A stretch of DNA of 64,000 nt, from NCBI GenBank assembly GCA_030390025.1, contig CM059432.1, forward strand, positions 16,184,001 to 16,248,000, read 5' to 3'. This DNA is from Squalus acanthias (lineage: Eukaryota). Position numbers and translations under genes: made by a program. Each line of letters starts with the position of its first letter. The first letter of the stretch is position 1. The notes below the pieces were generated by a model. That model was not told the origin of the DNA. It did no database searches and worked only from the letters and a program-made list of their open reading frames with translations. This document shows positions 36 through 20,381 of the stretch, piece after piece.

Positions 36-350
36 AAATTTGGGAGAATTGGAAAAGTTTTATTTTCCTGCTGAACAGATTTATTGGGAGAATATACTTG
101 GAACAATCCAAAAGCATTATTTTTGTGATAGGTTATTTTCACTACCCCTCCCGTTCTCAGCTCACTAAATTCCATCCCCCCTGTGCAAGTAACTCAGTGC
201 AGCCTGGTGCCAAAGTCGCTGTGTGACAGACCATCAAGACATGAGTAAGAGTAATCAGGATGAACAATCATTCTGACATTCTCGGTGTCCTACCTCTTTG
301 AGGTGATGCGTCACATTGCTAAATGCATCTGTCCCTATCAATTCATTTTA

Positions 351-1415
351 CTTACATAGACTTACATCGAATTTACAGCAGAGAAACAGGCCATTCAGCC
401 CAAATGGTCCATGCCGATGTTTATGCTCCACACAGGCCTCCTCCCACCCTTACTTCATCTCAGCCTATCAGCATATCCTTCAATTCCTTTATCCCTCATG
501 TAGTTATCTAGCTTCTGCTTAAATGCATCTATGCTATTCGCCTCAACCACTCCATGTGGTCATGAGTTCCACATTCTCACTGCTCTCTGAGTAAAGAGGG
601 TTCTCCTGAATTCCCTATTGGATTTATTAGTGACTACCTATATATATGGCTCCTAGTTTTGGATTCCCGCACAAGTGGAAACATCTTCTCTATGTCTACC
701 CGATCGAACCCCTTCATAATTTTAAAGAATGAGAATGAGAGGGGATCTCATTGAAATGTATAAAATTCTGACAGGGCTAGACAGACTGGATGCAGGGAGG
801 ATGTTTCCCCTGGCTGGGGGGGCTCTAGAACGAGGGGTCACAGTCTCAGGATACGGGGTAGGGCATTTAGGACTGAGATGAGGAGAAATTTCTTCACTCA
901 GAGGGTGGTGAACCTGTGGAATTCTCTACCACAGAAGGCTGTGGAGGCCAAGTCACTAAATATATTTAAGAAGGAGATAGATAGATTTCTAGACACAAAA
1001 GGCATCAAGGGGTATGGGGAGAGAGCGGGAATATGGTATTGAGATAGAGGATCAGCCATGATCATATTGAATGGCGGAGCAGGCTCGAAGGGCCGAATGG
1101 CCGACTCCTGCTCCTATTTTTCTATGTTTCTAAAGACTTCTATCAGGTCACCTCTCAGCCTTCTCTTTTCTAGATAAAAGAGCCTCAGTCTCTTCAGTCT
1201 TTCCTGATAGTTGTACCCCCTCCGTTCTGGTATCAAAACGTTTTGCACTTTCTCCAGTACTTTGACATCCTTTTAATAATCTGCAGACCAGAACTGTGCA
1301 CAGTACTCTAAGTGTGGTCTAATCAAGGTTCTAGTTAAGTTGAACATACAGTCTCTGCTTTTGAATTCTATTCCTCTAGCAATGAACCCCAGTGCTTTGT
1401 TTGCAATTTTTATCT
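351..1415 (-). mobile_element. CR1 LINE 3' fragment, interrupted at 729-1130
   Basis: Minus-strand ORF 1273-1470 gives the CR1 RT C-terminus (IRPHLEYCAQFWS); CR1 3' UTR at 351-480. Confidence 0.85.
729..1130 (+). mobile_element. CR1 LINE 3' end nested in an older antisense CR1
   Basis: RRMRGDLIE/FFTQRVVNLWN-coding sequence, TTTCTATG tail, TAAAGA duplicated at 723-728 and 1131-1136. Confidence 0.9.
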
Positions 1416-1534
1416 TAATTTTAATCAAAAGTAAATTTGAAAATATTAAAATCGTATTGTACCAGTTCATCCTGAGACAGATGCATATAGCATCTACTGC
1501 CGCACAAACCTTCTGCAGAAGCCAATATAACAGA

Positions 1535-1633
1535 ACTGAGTGTGGTTTAAACAGAGTGCTGTGAGTTGGGTGAGTCAGGGAGTCTGGTGAGGAGTGGAAA
1601 GAGGAGCTCCCTTGCTTCGCCTTCGCCTTTGTT
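1535..1633 (+). repeat. shared leader L, copy 1 (others at 12606-12698 and 14613-14705)
   Basis: ACTGAGTGTGGTTTAAACAGAGTGCTG...GGAGCTCCCTTGCTTCGCCTTTGTT is present three times, near-identical. Confidence 0.95.
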
Positions 1634-2704
1634 GGAGAGACACAGGCTGCGAGATTCTCAGCTCAGCTCAGCTCGGTGCTGTGTGAACGGGACTGAGTGC
1701 GGTTTGAAGAGTGCTGAGAAGAGGAGAGGAGAGGAGAGGTCTCTCTCTCTCTGTGCCTAGGAGGAGAAGAAGACAGAGCCACGAAGGGCAGAGTGGAGAC
1801 CCTTTCCACCTCCACCACGCCTGCTGCAGCTATTTCCACAACTACTGCTGAGGTGCCAGAAGGGAGAGGGGAGAGGGGAGAGGAGAGAGAGGAGAGGAGA
1901 CCAACAACAACAACAGAGGGAAGCCATTACATCACTGCCTCCCCAACTGGTCTCCATTACGAGAGAGGGAGAGAGGGGAGAACAAGACTACCATCTGCTT
2001 GGAAGGAGGGAGAGCGAGCCATCAAGAAAAACAACATCTAGAGGTGGGTGTTAAAAAGGGCACTCTCCAAAAGACTTTGTAGTTTAGGTGGGGGGAGGAA
2101 AGAAGAAGGAGAAGACCGGAACAGCAAGGGGAGTGTGTGTGGCTCTTGCTAACAACTAGGCCACACACACCATCAACAAGCACCCCTTGCCTATTGCTTG
2201 ACCTGGGACAGCTGGAGCTGCCCAGGCAAAGTCATCAATCTATTTCCCCAATCTATAACATCGTTAAGACCTGGTAGTGGACTGAGCCTGGGCATCTCCA
2301 GCTTTATTTTCCCAGGTGAAGACATCTTCTCCCCCCACCAGAAGATCAGAAAAAAACCAACAAGGACTATAATTAACATCGGAGAGTGCCCCCCCGTAAG
2401 CACCCACCCACTATCCTGAGTGGCGAACAGGCCCTTGCGGCCTCCCTTCTTCCCACCCGCTCTCTCTCTCTCTCTCTCTCTGCCTCTCTCTCTCTAACAA
2501 GGCACCTTTACCTATTAATTACCCAATTGAGCAGAGGGGAGAAGGCCCCTCTCCCAATTCCAATCATCAAAGGGAGAGGTGTGCCTTCATTTTTAAAACA
2601 ACCCCCTCTTCTCAGGGAAGAGACAAAAACAAACAACCTAGGCCATTTCAACCATCACCCGGCCTGTGACTTGGGGTGGGTGTAGCCCTTTATACCACCT
2701 TATT

Positions 2705-4747
2705 ATGGCGAGCACATCTTCGCCGGCAACGGGGCAAGCAAGGTCGTACGCGGGTGTGGCAGCCACGGCCACAGCCAGTCCCGCTGCTTCTGCTGCCCTG
2801 TCGCCTTTCAGGCTATTGACCAAAAAGCTGGGGGTGAAGAGCTACACTCACCCCAACATGACCATAGAGGCTTGCGTCAAAGCCATGGCTGGGGTAGTCG
2901 GCCCCTCAGCCATCGTAGCAGCCTCTAAAATGTACGGCAAGGCTGTGTTCTTCCTGGGGTCGGAGCGGGCGGTGTCCCTGGCCGTCACGAAGGGGCTCAC
3001 TGTGGGCGGGACCTTCCTGCCGGTGGATCCGCTTGAGGCCACCGCGCAGCGAATCGTCCTTTCAAACATCCCGCCCTTTGTTCCGGGTGAGCTCCTCCTC
3101 CCCCACCTACGTCAACTGGGGGAGGTGAGGTCGGGGATTAATCCGATCCCGCTCGGCTGCAGGGAGGCCAGCCTCCGGTACGTCTTCTCCTTCCGGCGCC
3201 AGCTGTTTATCCAGCTGGTGCGGGAGGAGGACAAAGAAGGCGCGTTGTCGTCCAACACGTGCGGTGCCACGCCTGCAAGGAGGTGGGGCACATAAGAAAG
3301 AACTGCCCCGCCTTCAAGGCCGCCAAAACATCTGAGGCAGCCGAGGCTGGCACCACCGCCGCTTCCCCCCCGTTTCTGTCTGCGCGTCCGCGACACCCGA
3401 TGCGCGGTCAACACCGAAGTCAACGCCGTCGCGGCCTCCGGCAGAGGGGAGGGGGAGCGTCCGATCGGAAGGAAGGCGCGGAGGAAAACTAAACTAAACA
3501 CCTTCAGGTGGGTCCCCTTGACATACAGGATGAGCTACCCGGGCTTACGCCCCCGTACCTTGCGCAGGTGGCGGCGGTGCTCGAGAGTGCGGGAGGTCTC
3601 GTGCCCGGGCCTGCGGCCGCAACTGCCAAGACAGCAAAATCAAGACCTGTGGTTGGGCCCGGGCCCGGGCACGAGAGACCCAAGCAAACCGTTCGACAGG
3701 AGGGAGCGGAGGTGGAGGCCTCGGTACACATGAGGTCTCCCAACCTCCGTGTCCCTTCACACTGAAAAGGAGGCGCAACACCCTGGAGGAGGAGGAGGAC
3801 CGCGAGGAACAGGGTCCCTCCTCGCAAGGGGAGTCGTCGCTCGCCGCGGGTGCTGCGCCCCCCCCCCGCAACCGACACCGACACCATCACTGACATCCGG
3901 CAGGAGTCGCCTGTCCCCCGGGAGGGTACGACAGATGAGTCTGTCCAGCCTGTGCCTCCCGGGGATGGGGAAGAGACCCTGCTCGTGGGGGGGGCCGCGG
4001 AACTACCCGCGGAGGAACTATATATTGAACCATTGTTTCTCGCCAGGTTGGGCGTCCTGGGGACCGGGGCGGGCGAGGCCAATGAGGCTGAGCCCGCCGT
4101 ATACGGTCAAGACTATTCCCAGGTGCTGCTCGACCTGGTTGAGGAATTCAGCCAGGGTCCCCGGTCCGCTGGGTCGGAGGATGGTGGCGGTGAAGGGGAA
4201 GGCCCCCTGACTCCGTCTCCGACGCTGGCGCCGGGGGTGTTGGGGGAACTGGCATTAATGTACTCCCCGGTTTCCCCTGTGCACCCCGGTGCCGGGGGCG
4301 GAGGGGGGCCCCGAGCCTGCCGCCGCTTCCTGGCCCGGCGCCTCTGGAGGAGCCCAGGGAGGACTCCTCTGCCGCTGATCCTGGGGGTGGGATCGGGGCA
4401 GAGGTAGGACCAGCTGATGGCGACCCCCCGAGGAGGAGGACGGGGACCCGGCGGAGGGCACTGAGGATGACATGGACTCCGTCGCCAGCGAGGCGGCGGA
4501 TACCCTCGTGCCCCCCTCCGGGCCCCCCCTCATCCCCGTTGTGGAACTCCGGGACTTTGTGGCCATGGGCCAGGGTCGCCAGGATATAATCCGGCTGGCC
4601 ATCGATAAATGGTCGATCTGGCGCTGCTCGTTTGCTCCGTCCGCGCCGCCGTCAAAACCATGGGCGCGACGGGGGCATGGGCCCGGCCGAGCGGCATCGG
4701 ATCCGGAAGTTCCTGGCTGGGCTGAGAAGGGAGTGGCGGTCGACTAG
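2705..4747 (+). pseudogene. Tx1 ORF1 (gag-like nucleic-acid-binding protein), frameshifted
   Basis: IVAASKMYGKAVFFL and IVLSNIPPFVP motifs, CHACKEVGHIRKNC knuckle in another frame at ~3262, low-complexity C-terminal half split over frames. Confidence 0.8.
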
Positions 4748-4803
4748 CGGCTGCGCTCCCTCCTCCCGTTAGGGTTAGGTAGAGGTTGCACTATGCTCTT
4801 GTC

Positions 4804-7800
4804 ATGAAGATAACCATAGCCAGCCTCAACATCAACGGCAGCAAAGAGGCACGCCGTAGATTTAATAACTTCACGGTCCTTCGGGAAGGGAGGCATGCAG
4901 TGTGCTTCCTGCAGGAAACTCACACCGTTCCGGGAGACGAGGCCATGTGGCTCCTGGAGTGGCGAGGAGGGGTCAACATGAGTCATTTCTCCAACATTTC
5001 CGGCGGGGTGGCTATCTTGCTGGCCCCGCATTTTCAGCCGCAGATCTTGGGGGTCAAGGAGCATGTGCCGGGCCGCTTGCTCCAGGTCACTGTTCGCCTG
5101 GGGGGCATGCCGCTCCATTTAGTGAACGTGTAGGCCCCCCAGGCCGGTGGCCAGCAAGTGCGCTTCTTCGAAGAAGTGTCCGCTCTTCTGGGCTCCATCG
5201 ACGTCGGCGAGTGTGTCATCCTCGGGGGGGATTTCAATTGTACCCTCGAGGCGAGGGACCGTTCGGGTCCTCCGCGAAGCCTGGCGGCGATGGTGAAGTT
5301 AAGGGACCTGGTCGGGTCCTTCGACTTGGTGGACGTCTGGCGAAATCTCCATCCCGACTCCAGCGCCTTCACTTGGGTGGGGTCTGGAGGAGGAAGGTCC
5401 AGAATCGACCGCCTTTATATTTCCCGGGCGTACGTCTCCTGCGTTCCGGCGGCTTCCATGCGGCCGGTACCGTGCACGGACCACCACCTGGTGTGGGCGG
5501 AGCTCGCTCCGTTGCACGCGCCGGGGGGGTCCGCGTACTGGCATTTTAACAACCTGCTGCTGGAGGACGAGTGGTTCCGGGATTCGTTTCGCCGGTTCTG
5601 GGCCGACTGGAGAAGGAAGCAGGGGGGGCTTCCCCTCCTTGAGGCGATGGTGGGACGTGGGCAAGGCTCACGTCCGTCTCTTCTGTCAAGAGTACACGAG
5701 GGGGTCGACCAAGAGGCGGGAGGCCCGGGTCGGGCGGTTGGAGAGGGAGGTGCTTGACCTGGAGTCCCGTCTCGGTCAGGTCGTCGAAGACCCGGCCCTG
5801 CGGAAGGTGTACGAAGAGAAGGGCGCGCTGAAGGACCTGCAGCTGGTCGGGTCCCGAGGCGCGTACGTGAGGTCGCGAATCCAGTTCCTGCGGGACCTGG
5901 ACCGCGGCTCCCCCTTCTTCTACTCGCTGGAAAAAAAAGACGGGGGGTCCGTGAGCAGCTCTTGGGGCTGCTGGCCGACGACGGATCTCTGGTCTCGGAT
6001 TCGGAGGGGATCAGCGCGGAGGCCCGGGCCTATTACGGGGCTCTGTTCTCTCCGGATCTGTCCAGTGAGGATGCGCGCAGAGCTTTGTGGAAGAACTTGT
6101 TGAAGGTCGGCCCGGAGGGCGCCGAAAAATTGGACGCTCCGCTAAGCTTGGCGGAGCTGACTGGCGCTCTCGGCCAGCTCTCGAGGGGAAAGTCCCCGGG
6201 GCTGGACGGGCTGACCGTAGAGTTCCACAGGGCGTTCTGGGACGTCTTGGGGGGCAACTACGCGCGGGTCCTGGGGGAAAGTCTGGCGACCGGGGAGATG
6301 CCCCTCTCTTGGCGCAGGGCGGTCATCGTCCTGCTGCCCAAGAAGGGCGATCGCCGCCTCTTAAAAAACTGGCGCCCGGTCTCCCTCCTCAGCACGGACT
6401 ATAACATTTTTGCCAGGGCCATGTCTGCGCGCCTTGGCTCCGTGCTGGCCTACATGATCCACCCCGACCAGTCCTACACGGTCCCGGGCCGGTCCATCCA
6501 TGACAACATCCATCTGGTCCGGGACCTGGTCCACCTTTCCCAGAGGGCTGGATCAGGAGAAGGCGTTCGACAGGGTGGATCATGAGTATCTTTTCGGAAC
6601 TCTGCGCGCATTCGGGTTCGGGACGCACTTTGTCGCCCGGATCCGACTTCTGTATGCCTGCCGCGGAGTGTCTGATTAAAGTTAACGGGTCTTTGACGGC
6701 GCCCCTTCGCTTCGGGAGAGGGGTACGTCAGGGATGCCCCATGTCCGGTCAGTTATACGCCGTTTGCGTGGAGCCTTTCCTGCGCCTCTTGCGGAAGAGT
6801 TTGATGGGACTGGCTCTGCAAGGGCCGGGCGTGGAGGTCGTCCTCTCGGCTTACGCCGATGACGTGCTCCTCATGGTCACGGATCCCGTCGACTTGCGGA
6901 GGATGCGAGAATGCCAGCAGATTTACTCGGACGCATCCTCCGCCAGGATCAACTGGGAGAAATGTTCTGGACTCCTGGTGGGCCAGTGGCGGGTGGACTC
7001 CCTGCCGGAAGAGTTCAGGCCCTTCGCCTGGAACACAACGCACCTCCTCTACTTGGGAGTCTACCTTGGCCCTGCTGAGGACACCTGGCCGGCGAACTGG
7101 CAAGAGCTGGAGGCCAAAGTCACCGCTCGCCTAGGACGTTGGACGGGGTTGCTCCGAGTGTTGTCCTACAGGGGTCGAGCGCTGGTCATAAACCAGCTGG
7201 TGGCCGCCATGTTGTGGTACCGGTTGGTCACTTTGATCCTTCCCTCTGCATTTGTCGCCAAGATACAGAAGAAGCTGATCGACTTCTTCTGGGACAAAAG
7301 GAAGCACTGGGTCTCTGCTGCGGTTCTGTGTCTCCCGCTTAGGGAGGGCGGTCAGGCGCTGTTGTGCCTTCGCACCCAGGCGGCGACTTTCCGCCTTCAG
7401 ACGCTGCAGAGATACCATTACGTCGAGAATCCTCCCAGATGGTGTGCGCTGGCGACATATTTCTTCCGTCAGATGCACGGCCTCAACTACGACACGCAGC
7501 TCCTGTTTGTGGAATTGGGCCGCACGCGAGCCTACCTGTGGGAGCTGCCTGTCTTCTACCAGGAAGTGCTATGGGTCTGGAACCAAGTCACCTCCAGGCA
7601 GAGTTCTCCCCCGTCAGGAGTGGCGGCTCTCCTTCGGGAGCCGCTGCTCAGTAATCCGCACCTCCACGTCCGACAGATCGGGTGGCTGGCGGAGGGCAGG
7701 GCTGTGCCTGGCAAGGTGACCAGAGTCGGGGACCTGCTCGATGGCGGAGGAGCGGGCTGGATGGCGTCGGAGGAGTTGGCGCGGCGCCTCTCCTGGGTCG

Positions 7801-8678
7801 ACGTCTGGCGCGCGGCCAAAGCCATCGAGTCGCTGAAAGTGGCCCTGGGCCCCGACTCCACTAGGTGTATCAAGGAGGCTCAAGCACATGGGGCGATCCC
7901 GTCCGAACTGACCCCCGTTCGGACGGAATTCCTCATTGGCGCGCGGCCCCGAAACCCCTCTCGGGAACAGGCGCCTCACAACTTGAGCCATCTCGGGGAA
8001 ATGCCCTCCGTGCCTTTTAGTTCTCCACGGAGGTGTTTCCTGTACTGGCTGCTCCTGCACACTCTCCACTTTGCCATCTTCGCCTGCCGTCCGGACACGC
8101 CTTGGCAGGCCACCTTGCCGTCCGGCGGAGGCGAAGGTCCCCAATGGAGGGCTCTCTACGCAGGAGTCCTCCCCTTTTCTACTGGGGACTAGGCCTGGAG
8201 GGTGTTGCACGGAGCAATCCCGTGCAATCAGCTTTTAAGTAGGTTCACGGACTCCCAGGCCGCCTGTCTTTTTTGCGGCCTCGAGGAGTCCGTGTTCCAC
8301 GTGTATGTACAATGTGAGAGGTTGCAGCCCCTCTTTCAATATTTGAAGGGGCTGCTCCTTGCTTTTTGGTTGCACTTCAGTCCCACGCTCCTGATCTACA
8401 GTCACCCAGTGCGGAGGGGAGAGGGCAGGTCGGAGGACCTCCTCGTAGGACTGCTCCTGGGCCTGGCCAAAGTGGCCATTAACAGGTCCAGGCAGCGGGC
8501 GGTCGAGGGGGTCGGTCGGCCCAATTGCCTGCCTCTCTTCCGCGGCTATGTTCGCGCCCGGGTGGCTCTGGAGATGGAGCACGCGATGTCCGCCGGCACA
8601 CTTGAAGCCTTCCGAGACCGGTGGGCGCCGCAGGGACTGGAGTGCATCGTCTCCCTGGGCAATGTTATTTTAATTTAA
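4804..8678 (+). pseudogene. Tx1 ORF2 (AP endonuclease, reverse transcriptase, zinc motif) with stops and frameshifts
   Basis: SLNING, FLQETH, GGDFN, SRIDRLY, TDHH; KSPGLDG, WRPVSLL, GVRQGCPMS, YADD, YLGV; CLFCGLEESVFHVYVQC; stops at 5131 and 8190, shifts near 5635, 5940 and 6550. Confidence 0.92.
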
Positions 8679-8743
8679 TGGGATAAGTTTCATTTGAAGT
8701 TTTGTTAATTTGCAGTCGTTTTATGTTGACTCAAAAAAAAGAG

Positions 8744-8877
8744 TACAAGGCCTACAATTCAGAGCAGCTGAGGCAGTTAATTAGGGGAACTAGATTAAAC
8801 TGGTTCTCCTGTAGCAGGGCAGGGCCGAGCAAGCTCCTTTGTTTCAGGGCCGATAAAAACAGGCTTTGAAGTGCGAT
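8744..8877 (+). promoter_or_regulatory. module P copy 1 (TATA altered to GATAAAAA; separated from its Inr by a CR1 insertion)
   Basis: Near-identical to 14473-14607; continues at 12601 after the inserted CR1. Confidence 0.75.
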
Positions 8878-8976
8878 CATAGAATCATAGAATCATAGAA
8901 GATAGGAGCAGGAGTAGGCCATTCGGCCCCTCTAGCCTGCTCGCCATTCAATGCGATCATGGCTGATCATCCAAAT

Positions 8977-10626
8977 TCAGTACCCTGTCCCTGCTTTCTC
9001 CCCATATCCCTTGATCCCTATAGCCTTAAGAAATATATCCAACTCCTTCTTGAATCTATTTAATGAATTGGCCTCTACTGCCTTCTGTGGCAGAGAATTC
9101 CACAGGTTCACCACTCTCTGGGTGAAGAAATTCCTCCTCATTTCTGTCCTAAATGGTTTACCCCTTATCCTTAGACTGTGACCCCTGGTTCTGGACTCCC
9201 CGACCATCGGGAACACCCTTCCTGCATCTAGTTTGTCCTGTCCTGTCAGAATTTTATAAGTTTCAATGAGATCGCCTCTCATTCTTCTAAACTCCAGCGA
9301 GTATAAGCCCAATCGACCCAATCTCTCTTCATACGTCATTCCTGCCATCCCAGGTATCAGCCTTGTGAATCTTCGCTGAACTCCTTCCATGGCAAGAACA
9401 TCCTTCCTCAGATAAGGCGACCAAAACTGCACACAGTACTCAAGGTGTGGTCTCACCAAGGCCCTGTACAACTGCAGCAAGACATCCTTGTTCCTGTACT
9501 CAAACCCTCTCGCTATGAAGGCCAACATACCATTTGCCTTCTTAACCACCTGCTGCACCTGCATGCTTACCTTCAGTGACTGGTGCACAAGGACACCCAG
9601 CTCTCGTTGCACTTCCCCTTCTCCCAATCTATTGCCATTCAGATAATAATCTGCCTTCCTGTTTTTGACACCAAAGTGGATAACCTCGCATTTATCCATG
9701 TTATATTGCATCTGCCATGCTTCTGCCCAATCACCCAACCTGTCCAAATCATCCTGGAGTTTCTCGGCATCCTCCTCGCAGCACACACGCCCACCCAGCT
9801 TTGTGTTGTCTGCAAACTTGGAGATATTACATCTAGTTCCCTTGTCTAGGTCATTAATATATATTGTGAATAGCTGGGGTCCAAGGACCGATCCCTGCGG
9901 TACCCCACTAGTCACTGCCTGCCACTCGGAAAAAGACTCGTTTATTCGAACTCTTTGCTTTCTGTCTGCCAACCAGTTCTCTATCCAAGTCAATACCTTG
10001 CCCCCAATCCCATGTGCCTTAACTTTACACGCTAATCTCTTATGCGGGACCTTATCAAAAGCCTTTTGGAAGTCCAAATACACCACATCCACTGGTTCTC
10101 CCTTATCTATTTTACCAGTTACATCCTCAAAAAATTCCAGTAGATTAGTCAGGCATGATTTACCTTTTGTAAATCCATGTTGACTTTGTCCGATCCTGTC
10201 ACTGTTTTCCAAGTGCTCAGCTATTACATCTTTTATAATGGACTCTAGCATTTTCCCCACTACCGATGTCAGGCTTACCGGTCTGTAATTCCCCGTTTTC
10301 TCTCTACCACCCTTTTTGAATAGTGGGGTAACATTAGCTACCCTCCAATCCATGGGTACAGTTCCAGATTCCATCGAATGTTGGAAGATGATCAGCAATG
10401 CATCTACTATTTCTAGGGCCACTTCCTTAAGTACCCTAGGATGTAGATTATCAGGCCCTGGGGATTTATCGGCCTTCAATCCCTTCAATTTCCCTAACAC
10501 CATTTCCCTACAAATACTGATTTCTTTCAGTTCCTCCCTTTCATCAGACCCTATGTTCCCCAACATCTCTGGGAGGTTATTTGTGTCCTCCTTTGTGAAG
10601 ACAGAACCAAAATATGTATTTAATTG
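8977..10626 (-). CDS. CR1 ORF2 RT portion (open frame; catalytic FADD reads FADN)
   Basis: KSPGPD, NYRPVSLTS, YLDFQKAFDKVPH, GVPQGSVLGP, SKFADNTK. Confidence 0.85.
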   Translation of the reverse strand, partial: QLNTYFGSVFTKEDTNNLPEMLGNIGSDEREELKEISICREMVLGKLKGLKADKSPGPDNLHPRVLKEVALEIVDALLIIFQHSMESGTVPMDWRVANVTPLFKKGGREKTGNYRPVSLTSVVGKMLESIIKDVIAEHLENSDRIGQSQHGFTKGKSCLTNLLEFFEDVTGKIDKGEPVDVVYLDFQKAFDKVPHKRLACKVKAHGIGGKVLTWIENWLADRKQRVRINESFSEWQAVTSGVPQGSVLGPQLFTIYINDLDKGTRCNISKFADNTKLGGRVCCEEDAEKLQDDLDRLGDWAEAWQMQYNMDKCEVIHFGVKNRKADYYLNGNRLGEGEVQRELGVLVHQSLKVSMQVQQVVKKANGMLAFIARGFEYRNKDVLLQLYRALVRPHLEYCVQFWSPYLRKDVLAMEGVQRRFTRLIPGMAGMTYEERLGRLGLYSLEFRRMRGDLIETYKILTGQDKLDAGRVFPMVGESRTRGHSLRIRGKPFRTEMRRNFFTQRVVNLWNSLPQKAVEANSLNRFKKELDIFLKAIGIKGYGEKAGTGY

Positions 10627-10627
10627 T

Positions 10628-11761
10628 GGATATGTGGAACACTCTTTGTTCCAGTCCTACTCGGGTCCCCTCCCTCACCTCTTTTTCCGGTACATTGACG
10701 ACTGTATCGGTGCCGTTTCCTGCTCTCGCCCTGAACTAGACAATTTCATTCACTTTGCCTCCAATTTCCACCCTTCCCTCACCTTCACATGGTCCATCTC
10801 CGACTCTTCCCTCCCCTTCCTCGACTTCTCCGTCTCCATCTCTGGGGATAGGTTATTGACCAACATTTACTACAAGCCCACTGACTCCCACAGCTACCTG
10901 GACTACACTTCCTCCCACCCCGCCTCCTGTAAGGACTCTATTCCCTTCTCCCAGTTTCTCCGTCTCCGCCGCATCTGCTCCGACGATGCCACCTTCCATA
11001 CCAGTGCTTCCGACATGTCTTCCTTTTTCCTCAACCGAGGATTCCCCTCTACCGTGGTCAACACGGCCCTCGACCGTGTCCGTTCCATCTCCCGCACTTC
11101 TGCCCTCACCCCGGCCCCTCCCTCCCGGAACCACGATAGAGTTCCCCTTGTCCTCACCTTTCACCCCACCAGCCTCCACATTCAACGGATCATCCTCCGC
11201 CATTTCCGCCACCTCCAACGTGATCCCACCACCAAACGTATCTTCCCCTCACCTCCCCTTTCAGCATTCCGTAGGGACCGCTCCCTCCGAGACACCCTAG
11301 TCCACTCCTCTATCACCCCCAGCACCCCTTCCCCTTCACCCGGCACCTTCCCGTGCAAGCGCAGGAGATGCAACACCTGCCCTTATACATCCCCCCTTCC
11401 CACTCTCCAGGGCCCCAAACACCCCTTCCAGGTGAAACAGCGATTTACTTGTACTTCTTGCAATCTAGTATACTGTATTCGCTGCTCACGATGTGGTCTC
11501 CTCTACATTGGGGAGACCAAACGCAGACTGGGTGACCGCTTTGCGGAACACCTCCGTTCAGTCCGGAAGGGTGACCCCGAGCTTCCGGTCGCTTGTCATT
11601 TTAATTCACCCCTCCACGCTCACTCAGACCTCACCGTCCTCGGCCTCTTGCATTGTTCCACGGAAGCGCAGCGTAAGCTCCAGGAACAGCACCTCATCTT
11701 CCGTTTAGGCACTTTACAGCCTTCCGGACTCAATATCGAGTTCAACAATTTCAGATCATAA
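10628..11761 (+). CDS. Penelope RT C-terminal half, Cys linker and GIY-YIG endonuclease (open frame)
   Basis: RYIDD, LPFLD, YYKPTD, CKRRRCNTC, LVYCIRCSRCGLLYIGET, RFAEH, LQPSGLN. Confidence 0.9.
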   Translation, partial: GYVEHSLFQSYSGPLPHLFFRYIDDCIGAVSCSRPELDNFIHFASNFHPSLTFTWSISDSSLPFLDFSVSISGDRLLTNIYYKPTDSHSYLDYTSSHPASCKDSIPFSQFLRLRRICSDDATFHTSASDMSSFFLNRGFPSTVVNTALDRVRSISRTSALTPAPPSRNHDRVPLVLTFHPTSLHIQRIILRHFRHLQRDPTTKRIFPSPPLSAFRRDRSLRDTLVHSSITPSTPSPSPGTFPCKRRRCNTCPYTSPLPTLQGPKHPFQVKQRFTCTSCNLVYCIRCSRCGLLYIGETKRRLGDRFAEHLRSVRKGDPELPVACHFNSPLHAHSDLTVLGLLHCSTEAQRKLQEQHLIFRLGTLQPSGLNIEFNNFRS

Positions 11762-12030
11762 CCCCGGCCCCTACCACATATGTACACATTTTATCCACTC
11801 TTTTGGTCCGTGCCTTTTTCCTTTTTTTCTCTCTCTCCCCCCACGGCAGCTGTCTCTGATTCTGCCAGCATTTCACACCTTACCTTTTGTTTCTCAACCT
11901 GTCCCATTACCATCTCGTCTTGCCTTGAGCATCTCTCAATGTCTCTACTCACTAAAGACCATCCCATTTGTTCTTTTATTCCTCCCCCCAGCCTCCCCCT
12001 TGCATTTTTATCTGTTTATTTCTTGCTCTC

Positions 12031-12072
12031 TCAGTTCCGACGAAGGGTTTCAACCTGAAACGTTAACTCTGT
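12031..12072 (+). ncRNA. minimal hammerhead-ribozyme-like motif of the Penelope 3' region
   Basis: AGTT-CCGACGA-AGG...CCT-GAAA-CGTT-AACT: core variant of CUGANGA plus GAAA, short stem II, palindromic AACGTT stem III. Confidence 0.6.
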
Positions 12073-12605
12073 TTCTCTCTCCACGGATGTTGCCTCGCCT
12101 GCTGAGTTTTTCCAGCGTTTTCTGTTGTTATTTCGGATTTCCAGCATCCGCAGTATTTTGCTATCGTATATGTATTTAATTGGTCTGCCATTTCTTTGTT
12201 CCCCATTATAAGTTCCCCTGATTCTGACTGCAAGGGACCTATGCTTGATTTCACTAATCTTTTTCTCTTCACATATCTATAAAAGCTTTTACAGTCATTT
12301 TTTATGTTCCCTGCAAGCTTACTCTCGTATTCTATTTTCCCCTTCTTAATTAATCCATTTGTCCTCCTTTGTTGAATCTTAAACTGCTCCCAATCCTCAG
12401 GGTTACTGCTTTTTCTGGCCAATTTATATGCCCTCTCCTTGGATCTTATGCTATCCCTAATTTCCCTTGTTAGCCACGGTTGAGTCACCCTTTTTGTTTT
12501 ATTCTTATGCCAAACTGGGATGAACAAATTCTGTAGCTCGTCCATGCGGTCTTTAATGTTTGCCATTGCCTATTTCGGGTTTTAGCACAAGCGCAGCGAT
12601 TTTGC

Positions 12606-12698
12606 ACTGAGTGCAGTTTAAACAGAGTGCTGTGAGTTGGGTGATTCAGGGAGTTAGTTGAGGAGTGGAAGGAGGAGCTCCCTTGCTTCGCCTTTGTT
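12606..12698 (+). repeat. shared leader L, copy 2
   Basis: Near-identical to 1535-1633 and 14613-14705. Confidence 0.95.
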
Positions 12699-14472
12699 GG
12701 AGAGACACAGGCTGCGAGATTCTCAGCTCAGCTCAGCTCGGTGCTGTGTGAACGGGTGAGCAAGCATACCCAAGCTGCTTGCGGGGAATGCTAGTGGGAA
12801 GGCTGTGAGATTCTCGGCTCAGCTTGGTGCTGTGTGAATGGGCTGTTCCACACCCCGGCTGCTCGTGGGGAATGCCAGTGCGGAGGGCCCAGTGCAGAAG
12901 GTCCAGGGTGGAAGACCCAGAGGAGAGTGGCCTAGGCGGGAGGCCCAGCATGGAGAACCCCAGGTGGGGGGCCCAGGGTGAAGCGGCTGGTCGGCAGAGG
13001 TGGAGTCGGGAGATGCTGTGGGTGAGCATGCTGCACTGGTTCTAAAAGTTGAAGAATGGTCTCGGGCCGGGATGAGTTCCAGCGGCCCCGTATGTGCTCC
13101 GTCTGGTGGCAGCTGTGAGGCTTTTCTCGGTGACGGGATCGGGTTTGTGCGCTGCCATTTTGGTGGAGGAAAGACAAACTGTTTCCATCTGTAGCATGGC
13201 GCGTGAGCAGGTCACAAGATGGGAAATGTGAACGGTTAAAAGTGGGGGAAAAAAGGAAAAATAAAAGGAAGATAAAAGACAAAACAAAGTAATATCGGTA
13301 AGGAATAATGAGTATTTTTTGATGACTGGGTCCTGTGAGCAATAACAGCAAGTAGAAGAAAATCTGAGTTTTCGGTCTTTTTTACGGGATTGAGAAAGTG
13401 GATGGTTTCTTTTCCGTGGAAAAGCTGAAGACTGTGGACAAGGACTATGACATCACATGGTTCGACAGACATCAAGTGAAAACGAGGAGTTATTAAATTG
13501 CCAATAGGACTGGCGTAGAACTGGTATTTACTTGTTTTGTTGAAAAAAGTTTCAGGTTTTCTGGTTGAAAGCAGTCTACTTGAGCTTTAATTGATTTTTG
13601 ATAAGGTGATGGGATTTTGCACATTGTGTTGTTAATTAGTGTTTATGTAGAATTTGCTTTGAGATTATTGTCTAGCAAATGGTATGAATTTATATTGGTA
13701 AGAAATTTATGGCTGGCTTTCGGGGGGGGGAAATTTCCTTAATGAACGAACTATTGAACGGACGGACGCTTGAGTGAACGAACGAACGAACGATCGAACG
13801 AACGCACGCATGCACATTGGAACTTACGCTCGATCGAACGAACAATCGTTTGGCTAGCGATTGAACGAACGAATGAGTGAACGCACACACTTAGACAAAT
13901 GGTACGCACGCACGCATACATATTGGAACTTACACTCGATCGAACGAACGGTCGTTGGCCTCTGAACGAACGAACGAGCGAACGAACGCACGCATGCACG
14001 CACTTAGACAAACGGTAGCACACGCACGCACATTGGAACTTACGCTCGATCGAACGAATGAACGAACGCTCGAGTGAACGAACGAACGATTGAACGAACG
14101 ATCGAATGAACGATTGAATGAACAAACGATGCCAGTAGGACTGGCGTAAAATGGGTAGTAGTATATTTGTAGCATTTAATTGAATTATGATGGTGCTATG
14201 TGATTTGTACACTGAGGTGTTAAACTGTTTTCTTTTATGTGGAGTTTACCTTGAGATTTATTGTTTTAAATCTACAAAGTTTGTGTGAGATTATTTAAGG
14301 GTATTTGTATTGTAAACTTTGTTGATTTATTTGTAAAATTTTATTAATGTATTTATATTGTTAATCGTAAAGCTGTTTTTAAGGCTTTATTGTTTATTGT
14401 GATCAATGAATGTAATGGTCTACTATGTAATTGATGAGTTGTGTAAGTACTATTGTACTTGAATAAAAGATT
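12699..14472 (+). mobile_element. unclassified non-coding element X (putative non-autonomous partner of the Tx1)
   Basis: First 58 bp identical to the Tx1 start (1634-1691), no credible ORF, T-rich tail with AATAAA at 14462 directly before P2. Confidence 0.6.
13740..14128 (+). repeat. (GAAC)n/(GCAC)n compound repeat with a ~110-120 bp higher-order unit
   Basis: CATTGGAACTTACGCTCGATCGAACGAA recurs three times (~13814, ~13921, ~14031) among GAAC runs. Confidence 0.85.
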
Positions 14473-14615
14473 TACAAGGCCTACAATTCAGAGCAGCTGA
14501 AGGCAGTTAATTAGGGGAACTAGATTAAACTGGTTCTCCTGTAGCAGGGCAGGGCCAAGCAAGCTCCTTTGTTTCAGGGCCTATAAAAACAGGCTTTGAA
14601 GTGCGATTTTGCACT
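14473..14615 (+). promoter_or_regulatory. module P copy 2: candidate Pol II core promoter (TATA and Inr)
   Basis: TATAAAAA at 14582, 31 nt upstream of the A (14613) of TGCACT (BBCABW Inr consensus); that A is the first base of leader L. Confidence 0.7.
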
Positions 14616-14987
14616 GAGTGTGGTTTAAACAGAGTGCTGCGAGTTGGGTGAGTCAGGGAGTCAGGTGAGGAATGGAAGGAGGAGCTCCCTTGCTTCGCCT
14701 TTGTTTTTCCTAACTTTTCACCCTGTAGGAATTGGTTCTTACTTTACACCAAGGAAAGAGTCCGAGAGCGGGAGCAGTCAAACAACAACAACTGCGAAAC
14801 CGCTAAAGTGACGTCACAACCAGGGAAGGAGCTGATTGGTAAGTAGGACCTGGTGAGTATTTCTACAGTCCAGTCGTTAAAGTAAAAGTAAGGTCTCTAG
14901 TTTAGAGTAAGTAGTGTTTAAAGGGAAGTAAGGTCCCTAGTGTATTTAATATTCTTTAATTTAAAGGGAGTAAATTAAGGGTAGGAC

Positions 14988-16001
14988 ATGGCAGGGCAGC
15001 TCGGCTGCGTGGAGTGCTCCTCCTGTGCTATGTGGGAAGTCAGGGACACATTAGGTGTCCAGGGCGAACACATGTGCAGGAAGTGTCTCCAGCTACAGCT
15101 ACTCGAAATCCGCGTTTCAGAACTGGAGCTGTGGCTGGAGTCACTGTGGAGCATCCGCGAAGCTGAGATCTTCGTGGATAGCACGTTTAACGAGGTGGTC
15201 ACACCGCAGGTAAAGAGTGCACAGGCAGACAGGAAATGGGTGACCGCCAGACAGAGTAAAAGAACTAGGAAGGTAGTGCAGGAGTCCCCTGGGTCCATTT
15301 CCCTCTCCGACAGATTTTCCGTTTTGGATACTGCTGGGGGAGATGGTTTCTCAGGGGAATGCAGCAAGAGCCAAGTCCGTGGCACTACAAGTGGCTCAGC
15401 TGCACAGGAGGGGAGGAAAAAGATTGGGAGAGCAATAGTGATAGGGGATTCTATTGTAAGGGGAACAGATAGACGTTTCTGTGGCCGCAGACGTGACTCC
15501 AGGATGGTATGTTGCCTCCCTGGTGCCAGGGTCAAGGATGTCACTGAACGGCTGCAGGGCATTCTGAAGGGGGAGGGCGAACAGTCAGAGGTCGTGGTTC
15601 ACATTGGTACCAACGACATGGGTAGAAAGAGGGATGAGGTCCTGCAACAAGAATTTAGGGAGCTAGGTAGCAGATTAAAAAGCAGGACCTCAAAGGTTGT
15701 AATCTCTGGATTACTCCCGGTGCCACGTGCTAGTGAGTATAGGAATAGGAGGATAGAGCAGATGAATGCGTGGCTAAAGAGTTGGTGCAGGAGGGAGGGC
15801 TTTAGTTTCCTGGATCACTGGGCCTGCTTCTGGGGGAGGTGGGACCTGTACAAGTCGGACGGGTTGCACCTGAACCGGAACGGGACCAACATCCTTGCGG
15901 GGAGGTTTGCTAGTACTGTTGGGGGGGGGTTTAAACTAACTTGGCAGGGGGCTGGAATACGGAGTGGAGCTATAGTAGGGGTGATACACAGCCAAATATA
16001 G
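14988..16001 (+). CDS. CR1 ORF1: zinc finger/leucine zipper and SGNH (GDSL) esterase domain, 337 aa
   Basis: CVECSSC...HMCRKC, heptad leucines, IGDSIVRG, HIGTND, DGLHLN. Confidence 0.9.
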   Translation: MAGQLGCVECSSCAMWEVRDTLGVQGEHMCRKCLQLQLLEIRVSELELWLESLWSIREAEIFVDSTFNEVVTPQVKSAQADRKWVTARQSKRTRKVVQESPGSISLSDRFSVLDTAGGDGFSGECSKSQVRGTTSGSAAQEGRKKIGRAIVIGDSIVRGTDRRFCGRRRDSRMVCCLPGARVKDVTERLQGILKGEGEQSEVVVHIGTNDMGRKRDEVLQQEFRELGSRLKSRTSKVVISGLLPVPRASEYRNRRIEQMNAWLKSWCRREGFSFLDHWACFWGRWDLYKSDGLHLNRNGTNILAGRFASTVGGGFKLTWQGAGIRSGAIVGVIHSQI

Positions 16002-16042
16002 AGGAAAAAACAAGTCAGCCTGGAAGGAAGAGCAAATATGTA

Positions 16043-18866
16043 ATGGCACAAGGGAGTATGGCAAGGCTGGATGGCATTTATTTTAATGCAAGGAGTCTTG
16101 CGAGTAAGGCAGATGAATTGAAGGTGTTGATGAACACATGGGAGTATGATATTGTTGCTATCATAGAGACATGGTTGAGGGAGGGGCAGGACTGGCAGCT
16201 CAATATTCCGGGGTATAGAATCTTCAGGCGAGACAGAGGGGGGTGTAAAAGAGGAGGGGGTGTCGCAATATTAATCAAGGAGTCAATTACTGCTGTAAGG
16301 AGGAATGATATCTTAGCAGGTTCCTCTAATGAGGCCATATGGGTAGAACTTAAAAACAAAAAGGGGGCAAGCACTTTGCTGGGAGTGTACTATAGGCCCC
16401 CAAACAGTCAGGGGGAGATAGAGTGACAGATATGTCGGCAAATCTCAGAGAAGTGTAGAAATAATAGGGTAATAATAGTAGGGGATTTCAACTTCCCCAA
16501 TATTAATTGGGATAGTCAGAGTGTGAAAGGCTTGGAGGGTGCGGAATTCTTAAAGTGCATCCAGGAGAGCTTTTTGAGCCAGCATGTAGAAAGTCCTACA
16601 AGAGAGGGGCGGTACTGGACCTAATTCTAGGGAATGTAGGGCAAGTGGTAGAAGTGTCAGTAAGAGAGCATTTTGGTGACACTGACCATAATTCGGTGAG
16701 ATTTAAGGTAGTCATGGAAAAGGAAAAAGGTGGACCAGAAATAAAGGTTCTAAATTGGGGGAAGGTCGATTTTAATATGATAAGGCAGGATCTGGCCAAA
16801 GTGGACTGGGATCAGCTACTTGCAGGAAAGTCCAAATCAGAGCAATGGGAGTCTTTCAGAAAGGAAATAGAGAGAGTACAATGCCAACATGTTCCCGTAA
16901 AGGTCAAGGGTGGGACCAACAAACCCAGGGAACCCTGGATGTCAAGGGATATACAAGAATGGATTAGGGGAAAAAAGGGAGGCTTTTGGCAGATACAAAG
17001 GACTAAAAACAGTGGAAGCCCTAGAGGAGTATAGAAAGTGCAGGGGGGTACTTAAAAAAGAAATTAGAGAGCAAAGAGGGGGCATGAAAAAACACTAGCG
17101 GGTAAAATAAAGGAAAATCCCAAGGTGTTATATAAGTATATTAAGGGCAAGAGGATAACCAGGGAAAGAGTAGGGTCCATTAGGGACCAAAGTTGCAATC
17201 TGTGTGTAGAGCCAGAAGATGTAGGTGAGGTGTTAAATGAATATTTTGCATCTGTGTTCACTCTGGAGAAGGACGATGTAGGCATAGAAATCAGGCAGGG
17301 GGATTGTGATATACTTGAACAAATTAGTATTGAGAGGGAGGAGGTACTAGTGGTTTTAGCAGGCTTAAAAGTGGATAAATCCCCAGGCCCTGACGAGATG
17401 TATCCCAGGCTGCCGTGTGAGGCAAGGGAGGAGATTGCAGGGGTTCTGACACAAATTTTCAGAACCACTCTGGCCACAGGGGAGGTGCCAGAGGACTGGA
17501 GAACAGCTAACGTAGTACCATTATTCAAGAAGGGTAGTAGGGATAAACCAGGGAATTACAGGCCAGTGAGCCTAACATCAGTGGTAGGGAAATTATTGGA
17601 AAAAATTCTGAGGGACAGAATTAGTCTCCACTTGGAGAGGCAAGGATTAATCAAGGATAGTCAGCATGGCTTTGTCAGGGGGAGATCATGTCTAACCAAT
17701 TTGATTGAATTTTTCGAGGGGGTGACTAGGTGTGTGGATGAGGGTAGTGTAGTTGATGTAGTCTACATGGACTTCAGTAAGGCTTTTGACAAAGTCCCAA
17801 ATGGGAGACTGGTCAAGAAGGTAAGAGCCCATGAGATCCAGGGCAAATTGGCTCATTGGATCCAAAATTGGCTTAGTGGCAGGAGGCAGAGGGTGGTGGT
17901 CGAAGGTTGTTTTTGTGACTGGAAGCCTGTGTCCAGTGGTGTACCGCAGGGACCGGTGCTGGGTCCTTTGTTGTTTGTAGTGTACATTAATGTTTTAGAT
18001 ATGAATGTAGGAGGTATGATCAGTAAGTTCGCAGATGACACGAAAATTGGTGGAGTGGTAAATAGCAAGGAGGGAAGCCTCAGGCTACAGGACGATATAG
18101 ACGGGTTGGTTAGATGGGCAGAACAGTGGCAAATGGAATTTAACCCTGAAAAATGTGAAGTGATGTATTTTGGGAGGACTAACAAGGCAAGGAAATATAC
18201 AATGAATGGTAGGACCCTAGGAAGGACAGAGGATCAAAGGGACCTTGGTGTGCATGTACATAGATCCCTGAAGGCAGCAGGACAGGTAGATAAGGTGGTT
18301 AAAAAGGCATATGGGATACTTGCCTTCATTAGCCGAGGCATAGAATATAAGAGCAGGGAGGTTATGATGGAGCTGTACAAAACGCTAGTTAGGCCACAGC
18401 TGGAATACTGTGTGCAGTACTGGTCACCACACTATAGGAAGGATGTGATTGCATTGGAGAGGGTGCAGAGGAGATTCACCAGGATGTTACCTGGGCTGGA
18501 GCGCTTCAGATATGAAGAGAGACGGGACAGGCTGGGGTTGTTTTCCTTAGAGCAGAGAAGGCTGAGGGGAGACCTGATTGAGGTGTACAAAATTATGAGG
18601 GGCATAGATAGGGTAGATAGAAAGGAACTTTTCCCCTTAGTAGAGGGTTCAATAACCAGGGGGCATAGTTTCAAGGTAAGGGGCAGGAGGTTTAGAGGGA
18701 TTTGAGGAAAGACTTTTTCACCCAGAGGGTGGTTGGAATCTGGAACTCACTGCCTGAAAGGGTGGTAGAGGCAGGAACCCTCACAACATTCAAGAAGCAT
18801 TTAGATGAGCACTTGAAACGCCATAGCATACAAGGCTACGGACCAAGTGCTGGAAAATGGGATTAG
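16043..18866 (+). pseudogene. CR1 ORF2 (APE and RT), disrupted
   Basis: YFNARSL, ETWL, GGGVA, YYRPP, TDHN, FADD; stop at 16424 and frameshifts near 16600, 16970, 17070 and 18700. Confidence 0.92.
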
Positions 18867-19113
18867 AATAGACAGGGCTTGATGGCCAGCGCGGACACGA
18901 TGGGCCGAAGGGCCTCTTTCTGTGCTGTATAACTCTATGACTCTATGAGAACTGCAGCATGGTTTGCAAAACTATTTCAGGATCTGAGTCCACCCATAAA
19001 CTCCCTGCTCAGATAGTCTGCATTTTAAATAGTTTCCCCAGTTTGTTGCTTGCGTTGGTGTTTGATGCAGACTCACTTGTCTCTGCTCATGCTTGTAGAA
19101 CTCCTCCTCATCC

Positions 19114-19532
19114 TACATAAGAACATAAGAAATAGGAGCAGGAGTAGGCCATTCGGCCCCTCGAGCCTGCTCCGCCATTCAATAATATCACGGCTGATCT
19201 TCTACCTCAACTCCACTTTCCTGCACTATCCCCATATCCCTTGATTCCCTTAATATCCAAAAATCTATCGATTTCTGTCTTGAATATACTCACCGACTGA
19301 GCCTCCACAGCCCTCTGGGGTAGAGAATTCCAAAGATTCACCACCCTCTGAGTGAAGAAATCTCTCCTCATCTCAGTCCTAAATGGCCAACCCCTTATTC
19401 TGAGGCTGTGACCCCTGGTTCTAGACTCCCCAGCCAAGGGAAACATCCTCCCTTCATCTACCCTGTCAAGCCCTGTAAGAATTTTGTATGTTTCAATGAG
19501 CTCACCTCTCATTCTTCTAAACTCTAGAGAAT
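19114..19532 (-). mobile_element. CR1 3' fragment
   Basis: LEFRRMRGELIE...KGYG on the minus strand, ATAAGAAC tail. Confidence 0.9.
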
Positions 19533-19575
19533 ATTGGCCTATCCTCTCGCTTCCTGAGGGCAAGTGGAATTTTTG

Positions 19576-19754
19576 TTTATTCATTCATGGGATGTGGGCG
19601 TCGCTGGCAAGGCCAGCATTTATTGCCCATCCCTAATTGCCCTTGAGAAGGTGGTGGTGAGCCACCTTATACAACTGAGTGGCTTGCTAAGAGAGCAGTT
19701 AAGAGTCAACCACATTGCTGTGGGTCTGGAGTCACATATAGGCCAGACCAGGGT
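19576..19754 (-). mobile_element. 3' part of a SINE sharing its tail with LINE family B
   Basis: 19576-19662 matches the family-B 3' end (49931-50017), then diverges into sequence shared with the tRNA-headed SINE at 60230-60480. Confidence 0.75.
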
Positions 19755-20381
19755 TTAAAGTGCACCTGCTTTATATGGACACACACCAATGGTGTTACAC
19801 AAGTGAATTGGACCATTCGAAAAAGCAAGGCAGGGGAGCCTCATCCTCATTAACATGTTTCCTGGATGTCTAATGAGCCGTGTGTAGATCAACAGCACAA
19901 GCCTCCTGCTCCCCCAGCACGGCCCAGTGCCTTTCCGGCGACTTTCTGCCCCGCTCCACCTCCACCCCAATGCTTGAACCACCAATGCACGGGTTTGGAA
20001 AATCTTCCCTCGAATTCCAAGTGACAACAGAGTCTGAAAAAGAGCTGTACGGGCAAGTGGTGTGTGCACGTCATCACTGGTATTCAATGGCGACATTTTG
20101 CACTGTTTAAGAATATTGAGGTGCAGCCCTTATGTTTTCCTGGCATAAGTATACAGGTATGGATGAAACCACCATCAACTTTCATGATCCGACTGCAGTT
20201 AGAGTATTGTAGAGCACTGGCATCTTGACTACAATGCTCAGTATTGTAGAGGCCAGTGTCTTTTACATTACATCACGCATTCCACCAGCAATATAGCAAT
20301 TTGCACACTAATCGTTGAAGGGGTGGAGTGGCTAATTAAATCTATAACAACCTTGCTACAGTAAGTTGTAACACAAGATAG

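Follow-up and report, generated by a model that had tools for sequence, protein, structure and literature searches.

The 64,000-nt stretch of vertebrate DNA analysed here (the window), in which esterase-type CR1, Penelope-like and Tx1 elements are abundant, a content that suggests a cartilaginous fish, holds a 1.8-kb stretch, here called X, in the slot that is occupied elsewhere in the same array by a Tx1-clade LINE. The locus raises the question of what X is and which element brought it there. An earlier note had taken X for a non-coding, Pol II-transcribed, non-autonomous retroelement that the Tx1 machinery had mobilised into the Tx1 target. Self-comparison of the window gave the order L1, 58 bp, Tx1, P1, reverse CR1 (with a nested Penelope-like element), L2, X, P2, L3 and forward CR1, where L and P are repeats that recur along the array:

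1532–1538, plus strand: left copy of a 7-bp direct repeat that may be the target-site duplication of the array as a whole; L1 begins within it, sharing its last 4 nt.
1535–1633, plus strand: L1, beginning at an initiator-like A without P upstream; exon 1 and the 5′ part of a leader intron, with donor GTGAGT at 1570 and a 6-bp duplication within L1.
1634–1691, plus strand: 58-bp stump of the head of X, preceding Tx1; an exact match to the start of X.
1692–8743, plus strand: Tx1-clade LINE with frameshifts; L-like head at 1692, ORF1 from 2705 with a zinc knuckle, ORF2 with APE, RT and zf-RVT, a short T-rich 3′ end and an A-run before P.
8744–8877, plus strand: P1, first promoter copy; TATA altered to GATAAAAA, split at GCGAT by the reverse CR1.
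8878–12595, minus strand: reverse CR1, apparently a later nested insertion, between TATA and start site; 5-bp duplication GCGAT.
About 10630–12170: Penelope-like element nested inside the reverse CR1.
12596–12698, plus strand: L2, continuing P1; start-site A at 12606, donor 1 weakened (GTGATT, 12641), donor 2 lost (TTGAGG, 12658).
12699–13215, plus strand: X, 5′ part; 61% GC, two ~88-bp tandem units (12709–12799 and 12800–12886), GCCATTTT at 13154.
13216–13738, plus strand: X, middle; A-rich, then T-rich.
13739–14135, plus strand: X, compound repeat of (GAAC)n type; its 397 nt contain 55 CpG, an observed/expected ratio of 2.3 against 0.5 for the window.
14136–14472, plus strand: X, T-rich 3′ part, ending in AATAAAAGA; AAAAGA (14465–14470) may belong to the P side.
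14473–14612, plus strand: P2, putative upstream core promoter; TATAAAAA at 14582, 31 nt upstream of an initiator-like A at 14613.
14613–14647, plus strand: 35-nt leader exon 1, which opens L3, from a contig joint and a splice-signal scan.
14613–14705, plus strand: L3, from self-comparison.
14648–14728, plus strand: leader intron, 81 nt, with a GTGAGT donor and a TAG acceptor; CTAAC at 14710 as branch point and pyrimidines at 24 of 30 positions.
14729–18947, plus strand: CR1 body; rest of the leader, ORF1 from 14988 with a GDSL esterase, broken ORF2 (APE, RT), (ACTCTATG)n tail.
18948–18954, plus strand: right copy of the 7-bp direct repeat, immediately after the CR1 tail.

Without the reverse CR1, the array is ~13.7 kb long and reads L-58-Tx1-P, L-X-P, L-CR1. 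The period from L2 to L3 is 2,007 nt, which is the length of the L-X-P unit, and this tandem arrangement includes a first unit that begins at the predicted transcription start and retains 58 bp of X only. The two P copies are identical at 140 of 144 aligned nt, and the forward CR1 is ~97% identical to a sister copy at 54570–56743. The reverse CR1 separates P1 from L2 with a 5-bp duplication (8873–8877 and 12596–12600) and is best read as a later guest in the array. With its TATA altered and the reverse CR1 lying between TATA and start site, the first promoter P1 is predicted to be dead.

X itself is a real, multi-copy, non-coding element. Across all six read-through frames the best Pfam match had an E of 0.11, and X was matched at E<0.01 by none of the 116 Tx1-related proteins, all of which matched the Tx1 element. 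The longest open frame in 12699–13738 spans 149 aa, a length equalled by 53 of 300 shuffles, and for the 149-aa minus-strand frame of X no usable protein match was found in Atlas. The statement that X beyond the shared 58 bp is unrelated to the Tx1 also stood, since its best matches were 13-mers at E 0.45, or E 0.71 in a looser search. Internally, X 13499–13730 is a diverged duplicate of 14130–14370 (score 92, reached by 0 of 300 shuffles). Folding revealed no special RNA structure in the head (z +0.86) or tail (z −1.46; 16 of 200 shuffles) of X.

Several familiar identities for X were tried and rejected. A Pol III SINE was ruled out by the lack of any tRNA or Rfam match and by a scan for the A- and B-box consensus patterns. 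In agreement with the earlier note, no B box turned up; a single loose A-box match lies at 12928, and the plus strand has 21 TTTT matches. Rfam at E≤1 over 1–20000 returned three weak microRNA-type matches, none of them in X, L or P, and P-L is therefore not a recognised small-RNA gene. An internally deleted or bipartite Tx1 derivative was ruled out as well, because the shared 58 bp is a unit of X, the 3′ similarity is near chance and none of the 116 Tx1-related proteins matches X. An LTR element or solo LTR was rejected on the grounds that the P-L repeats, by inspection, neither begin with TG nor end with CA and that P-L is followed by a CR1 bearing a tail of its own; X itself showed neither long terminal repeats nor terminal inverted repeats. 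A DNA transposon or MITE was excluded because none of six inverted pairs connects both ends of X. Neither a poly(A) nor a short target duplication of its own accompanies the copy of X at 12699–14472.

The copy number and variants of X were examined using contigs of four public runs (X5, X6, X8 and X12; three organisms, four studies) placed on 12450–15050 at 85% likeness; X12 is RNA by guess only, and coverage was not used as evidence of expression. X is not confined to a single copy, as all 20 bins within it were covered in all four runs and three organisms. Summed contig depths inside X, which are not copy numbers, were 386–65,804 (X5), 28–2,685 (X6), 9–2,561 (X8) and 10–639 (X12), and the lowest listed single contigs had depths of 21–29 (X5) and 2–7 (X6 and X8). 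X is clearly repetitive and common to relatives. Among 40 of 245 differences, those between the window copy of X and others were mainly CpG decay in the GC-rich part, and among 15 of 41 joints there were variants of X with internal deletions or altered repeat counts. The GAAC-type repeat (13739–14135) retains its 55 CpGs, although CpGs have decayed in the GC-rich head of this copy of X. In the metagenome collection there were no matches to the L pattern and no confirmed CR1 ORF1 relative among 171 candidates; two viral-contig matches to a 17-mer were taken as chance.

The runs also bear on whether X needs L and P at all. In X6 and X8, two of the three runs that are probably DNA, the depths at 14456 (1385 and 1282) were ~8–20 times those at places in P (175/80 and 160/64), and in X5 the depth by single places was 24,881 at 14456 versus 1,611/1,295 in P, although the bin means of X5 show no such drop. 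Many ends of X may thus lack a similar P, and the junction of X and P was bridged by 31 nt on each side in no contig among the 32 of 5,621 pieces listed. Possibly, X is a dispersed repeat in its own right (a different LINE's leader, an LTR interior or a DNA-element derivative) that entered the leader intron of one CR1 lineage, has most of its copies elsewhere and plays no role in CR1 promotion, in which case it would be an ordinary unannotated repeat. The excess of X over P depth in organisms B and C, together with the deletion and repeat-number variants found across runs (joints 12891>13147, 12958>14164 and 13016>14044), fits this idea. We nevertheless consider it unlikely, as X has no long terminal or inverted repeats of its own and no coding remnant, and P depth is lowered by variants of P (joint 14522>14578, in three of four runs). 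In addition, L-X junctions recur, as the window has two of them and two of four runs show one as a contig joint; the duplicated form of L1, with its 6-bp duplication, was joined to the head of X by a contig joint in two of four runs.

The link between X and the Tx1 had been drawn from their shared first 58 bp. The identity itself was confirmed, as 12699–12756 equals 1634–1691 over exactly 58 nt, with the exact match extending 13 nt back into L, and the partial repeat was found at 12800–12842 (81%, E 1e-6). What was not borne out is that these 58 bp are the Tx1's own start. The tandem unit continues in X, where 12757–12799 matches 12843–12890 at a level reached by 0 of 1000 shuffles, and not in the Tx1, for which the corresponding score was 13. 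At 1692 the Tx1 starts anew, with a head that resembles L (1 of 1000 shuffles). Since the unit runs on in X but not in the Tx1, 1634–1691 is a stump of X and not a Tx1 head, and the 58 bp appear better assigned to X's own ~88-bp tandem unit. A one-unit variant of X (joint 12755>12889) shows, at about that place, ACTG, the first four bases of the Tx1 head. The 5′ end of the Tx1 (1692–1740) resembles the first 25–50 nt of L, with the same initiator A as its start. Between L1 and L2 there are 7 differences in 93 sites, and in the 58-bp stump there are none; identity over 58 bp is unremarkable at 3–4.5% divergence (probability 0.07–0.17) and unlikely (0.01) only at 7.5%.

The neighbour at 1692–8743 can be placed in the Tx1 clade by its domains and protein similarity (an ORF1 zinc knuckle, APE, RT and zf-RVT in ORF2, and 41% identity over 275 aa to a protein named TX1 ORF2). 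At this one locus, X and the Tx1 do end at the same junction before P. The claim of parallel 3′ ends fared less well. The last 330 nt of X are indeed T-rich, with 27% GC, but have little in common with the Tx1 beyond AAAAGA: the similarity score of the two 3′ ends was reached by 15–19 of 300 shuffles for the last 30–60 nt and by 148–230 of 300 for the last 100–150 nt. AAAAGA may itself belong to the P side, as one contig joint places it behind L and not X (14662>14465), and the 3′ boundary of X lies somewhere between 14464 and 14472. An AATAAA at 14462, near the end of X, is mildly unusual in its position, as 12 of 500 shuffles have one within their last 30 nt.

The nature of the slot became clearer from P and L. 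P carries the TATA box TATAAAAA 31 nt before the A of an initiator-like TGCACT, judged by the usual TATA-start spacing and initiator consensus, and both the array, through L1, and the Tx1 head begin at such an initiator-like A. In all four runs, three of them listed as probable DNA, a contig joint omits exactly 14648–14728 (GT..AG, joint 14646>14728); the sides of this joint are 25–37 nt long, the letters between them are given as 'not known', and the donors of L3 and of an upstream L are indistinguishable in it. Spliced CR1 retrocopies seem to exist, as they are the simplest source of an intron-less joint, and since such retrocopies would derive from spliced CR1 RNA, Pol II transcription from L is indicated. 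The proposal that Pol II is involved is therefore most likely correct, supported by the TATA box and initiator of P-L and by the spliced intron, but not by the motif with which it had been connected. That motif, the YY1-like GCCATTTT, is present at 13154, yet 47 of 500 shuffled versions of X contain it as well, which is chance level, and was rejected as Pol II support.

L consists of the 35-nt exon and the first 58 nt of the 81-nt GT-AG intron. The last base of L, at 14705, is position 58 of the intron and lies shortly before the branch point, so the slot of X and of the X stump is intronic; X and the Tx1 do share a position, as had been claimed, but that position is a point inside the leader intron of CR1. 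A scan of 12606–14990 found no acceptor-like site other than 14728, so the donor of an upstream L could splice across X-P-L. The unspliced leader contains 43 ATGs, and the spliced leader has no upstream ATG. An intronic position could also mute an AATAAA through U1 protection.

Three minor features of the leader may be recorded here. Both donor positions of L2 are hit by two of its few non-CpG differences (12641–12646 and 12658–12663), L1 and L3 keeping both donors; this damage might favour retention of X, although the numbers are small. The end of L (14692–14705, GCCTTTGT) and the start of P (14473–14480, ACAAGGC) are near reverse complements, and P-L thus has a 7–8-bp terminal inverted match that may be due to chance. 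Further donor-like sites (GTAAGT, GTGAGT and GTAAGG) lie at 14839–14933 in the CR1 leader before ORF1, making a second leader intron possible there; no joint for such an intron was among the joints listed.

The evidence that bears most directly on the carrier of X is the 7-bp direct repeat (1532–1538 and 18948–18954) that brackets the entire L-58-Tx1-P-L-X-P-L-CR1 array. An equally good score was obtained by 33 of 20,000 random right ends, and the same 7-mer was absent after the tail at all six other CR1 3′ ends inspected. Other CR1 duplications in the window are of similar size, with 6 bp at 732–1128, where an empty paralogue served as a check, and 5 bp for the reverse CR1. We read the 7-bp repeat as the probable target duplication of a single CR1 insertion, in which the cDNA would have extended as far as L1 and 4 nt of microhomology would have served the 5′ join. 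A CR1 RNA would then have been the template, in cis, for L1 and for one or more of the units that separate L1 from CR1. This evidence comes from one locus and from a repeat of 7 bp, 4 of which overlap the element start. When 16 CR1 ends were screened for duplications over wide windows, the outcome was uninformative relative to the null of that screen, which had no power, and the halves of one older repeat, sought in the flanks outside the 7-bp repeat, were not demonstrable.

X accordingly lies within the boundaries of a CR1 insertion as marked by the 7-bp repeat at this one locus, and mobilisation by the Tx1 into the same target, as the earlier note had it, is not what the array-wide repeat indicates, which is reverse transcription in cis by CR1. 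The description of X as a non-autonomous retroelement survives insofar as X is non-coding, multi-copy and retrotransposed, but its carrier looks like CR1 and not Tx1. Tx1 mobilisation in trans is possible but less probable; X has no poly(A), no target duplication of its own and no 3′ tail shared with the Tx1, and 5′-truncated copies of X with a fixed junction were not demonstrable. X at this site most likely travelled with CR1 and not as a separate Tx1 passenger.

A role for the Tx1 can be retained if the original proposal is amended. X would then be a non-autonomous retroelement whose L-headed RNA starts from P and ends at AATAAA; a Tx1 specific for the A-run before P would insert it, and P-L (about 240 bp) would be duplicated when the head of L anneals downstream of the nick, which would place the new copy behind a promoter once more. 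X could possibly also hitch-hike in CR1 read-through RNA and be a source of new modules. Such an account draws on the ends of Tx1 and X, which lie in register before P, on the L-like head of the Tx1, which would point to a long association with this promoter, on the AATAAA at the end of X, and on the finding that AAAAGA-P has at least three upstream partners, namely X, the Tx1 and a short piece of L. It also has a precedent, as passages of PMC4494074 describe SINEU elements and Tx1-Mar LINEs that share targets and heads, insert into another transposon and are proposed to be transcribed from upstream. On the other side, X and the Tx1 have no common 3′ tail beyond chance, and X has neither a poly(A) nor a Tx1 protein remnant. 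The leftmost L is without P upstream and abuts a duplication of CR1 size, and a 240-bp duplication would be exceptional; R9 is said to be the closest case to a target duplication of about 240 bp. No pile of varied loose ends was seen at the ends of X among the 24 of 558 listed, and the single Tx1 copy in the window is insufficient for target specificity. We regard the amended model as possible but less likely than not, and note that it can coexist with the reading that we prefer.

The reading that we prefer, with a probability of roughly 0.55, is that L-X-P is a 2,007-bp tandem leader module of esterase-type CR1, carried in unspliced RNA, that would give new copies an internal upstream promoter, and that the Tx1 replaced most of a second module. 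It is supported by the start of the array at the A, the TATA box 31 nt before it, the spliced joint and the bracketing repeat. The summed depths in X5, which fall by bin from 333k in ORF1 to 119k in the leader, 45k in L and 21–25k in P, with 18k at the 3′ end of X, fit 5′ truncation of one element and a leader module; the bin depths of X6 and X8 do not. Furthermore, the anatomy of X matches that of the long LINE 5′ UTRs described in passages of PMC5381506, which have a CpG-rich start, 70–100-bp tandem duplications and T-rich repeats over 2–3 kb. Counting against a leader module, the AATAAA and T-rich end of X appear to resemble an L1-clade 3′ end (12 of 500 shuffles).

In such a module, Pol II would start at L, downstream of the TATA box of the putative promoter P. 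Splicing from the donor of L to the acceptor at 14728 would yield a clean mRNA, X-P-L being removable as an enlarged intron. The spliced RNA would be translated, whereas the unspliced RNA, with X-P-L, would be reverse-transcribed from the CR1 tail by CR1's own protein. A new copy beginning at the start site would lose the upstream promoter but keep the internal X-P and so could still be transcribed. X would be cis cargo, probably a CpG-rich region upstream of P. Each round would cost one module, and modules would be regained by duplication, template switching or targeted insertion. The Tx1 would have entered at the A-run before P in the second module and joined 58 nt into its X, either with a target deletion, an outcome described in passages of PMC2881922, or by a template jump onto L-X RNA, comparable to the 5′ extensions of SINEU-2 in PMC4494074.

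The two modules could also have a more trivial origin, as a local DNA duplication after the CR1 insertion, with the Tx1 landing at the A-run by ordinary L1-type preference and deleting most of one X; there would then be no family-level tandem structure and no targeting. P1 and P2, like L1 and L3, differ by about 3–4%, as does CR1 from its sister copy, and the deletion of target DNA upon insertion has the same precedent (PMC2881922, in part). We consider this origin very improbable nonetheless, as the beginning of the first module coincides with the transcription start instead of some random breakpoint, the Tx1 head is L-like, and contig joints show P-L re-entries elsewhere. These joints (14662>14465 and 12629>14511, seen in one of four runs each) leave L partway and return to P, and they suggest that shorter P-L units may exist as well.

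A tandem leader module has partial counterparts in known systems. The 5′ monomer arrays of rodent L1 (about 200 bp in mouse and about 650 bp in rat) and the long 5′ UTRs of mammalian L1 likewise place tandem promoter units at the 5′ end of a LINE, and the latter share with X a CpG-rich start, 70–100-bp duplications, low-complexity or T-rich parts and leaders of 2–3 kb (passages of PMC5381506 and PMC3600994). Unlike in rodent L1, the element here is of the CR1 clade, the unit is 2,007 bp long, or ~3 times the largest rodent monomer, the TATA box is upstream of the start, and the unit lies in a spliceable intron. CR1 subfamilies with different 5′ UTRs were reportedly described by Haas et al. (2001). 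Repeating 5′ subunits of CR1-group elements (one to five units of 100–500 bp) are also tandem near the 5′ UTR according to passages of PMC13343379; they occur in some elements without ORF1, whereas the CR1 here has an esterase ORF1 and a unit at least four times longer, and the passages on these subunits make no mention of a promoter or a leader intron.

In the Drosophila elements HeT-A and TAHRE, a unit's promoter comes from the 3′ end of the unit before it, and the promoter-to-promoter unit is LTR-like, as in P-L-X-P-L; HeT-A is telomeric and encodes Gag, whereas the unit here is non-coding, interstitial and attached to CR1 (PMC5537684, in part). By analogy to a rodent L1 monomer, or to the 3′ promoter of HeT-A, X would act in an array in which the end of each unit drives the next. 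Crocodilian SINEU and Tx1-Mar offer another likeness, a non-coding, probably Pol II-transcribed retroposon beside a Tx1 that inserts into transposons, with a shared head and template-jump 5′ extensions; SVA and Sadhu are also cited as comparable (both in passages of PMC4494074). Unlike SINEU as described there, X has no snRNA head, measures 1.8 kb versus under 500 bp, and its host would be a CR1 promoter. PMC3747384 and PMC12203849 served, in part, as background only. A literature search, with Repbase, Dfam, subscription journals and supplements outside its range, found no description of this module, of a CR1 leader intron or of a Tx1 targeting a CR1 promoter. The promoter-array strategy is known, and the variant of it that is borne in a CR1 leader intron appears novel.

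LINEs are thought to need internal promoters, as reverse transcription drops everything upstream of the start. The locus suggests a route by which a vertebrate CR1 might preserve an upstream TATA promoter, as an internal copy in a spliceable leader intron. It also raises the question of whether splicing separates CR1 mRNA from CR1 genomic RNA. The locus thereby yields testable statements on the transcription of CR1, the dominant repeat of sharks and rays, in whose genomes CR1-group elements make up 22–34% (passages of PMC13343379). Should the Tx1 prove specific for this promoter, it would represent a new kind of target and a compact way of joining a 5′ end by means of a borrowed head. More speculatively, and in our view rather unlikely as a whole, the parts may form a three-party system, in which CR1 hides a spare promoter cassette, X-P-L, in its own leader intron, and a promoter-specific Tx1 cuts immediately before P and duplicates P-L through annealing of the L head, on its own RNA or on that of X, thereby borrowing the promoter and replenishing the array. 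If true, this would amount to an LTR-like cycle of promoter regeneration in a vertebrate LINE, built from splicing and the target specificity of a second LINE.

Two observations concern other elements of the window. The Penelope-like element is flanked by a 15-bp direct repeat (about 10613–10628 and 12169–12183) and has a 490-codon open frame with a GIY-YIG match. At 34297–36064 lies a tandem array of ~58–59-bp units, with open frames of 616–747 codons in the three plus-strand frames.
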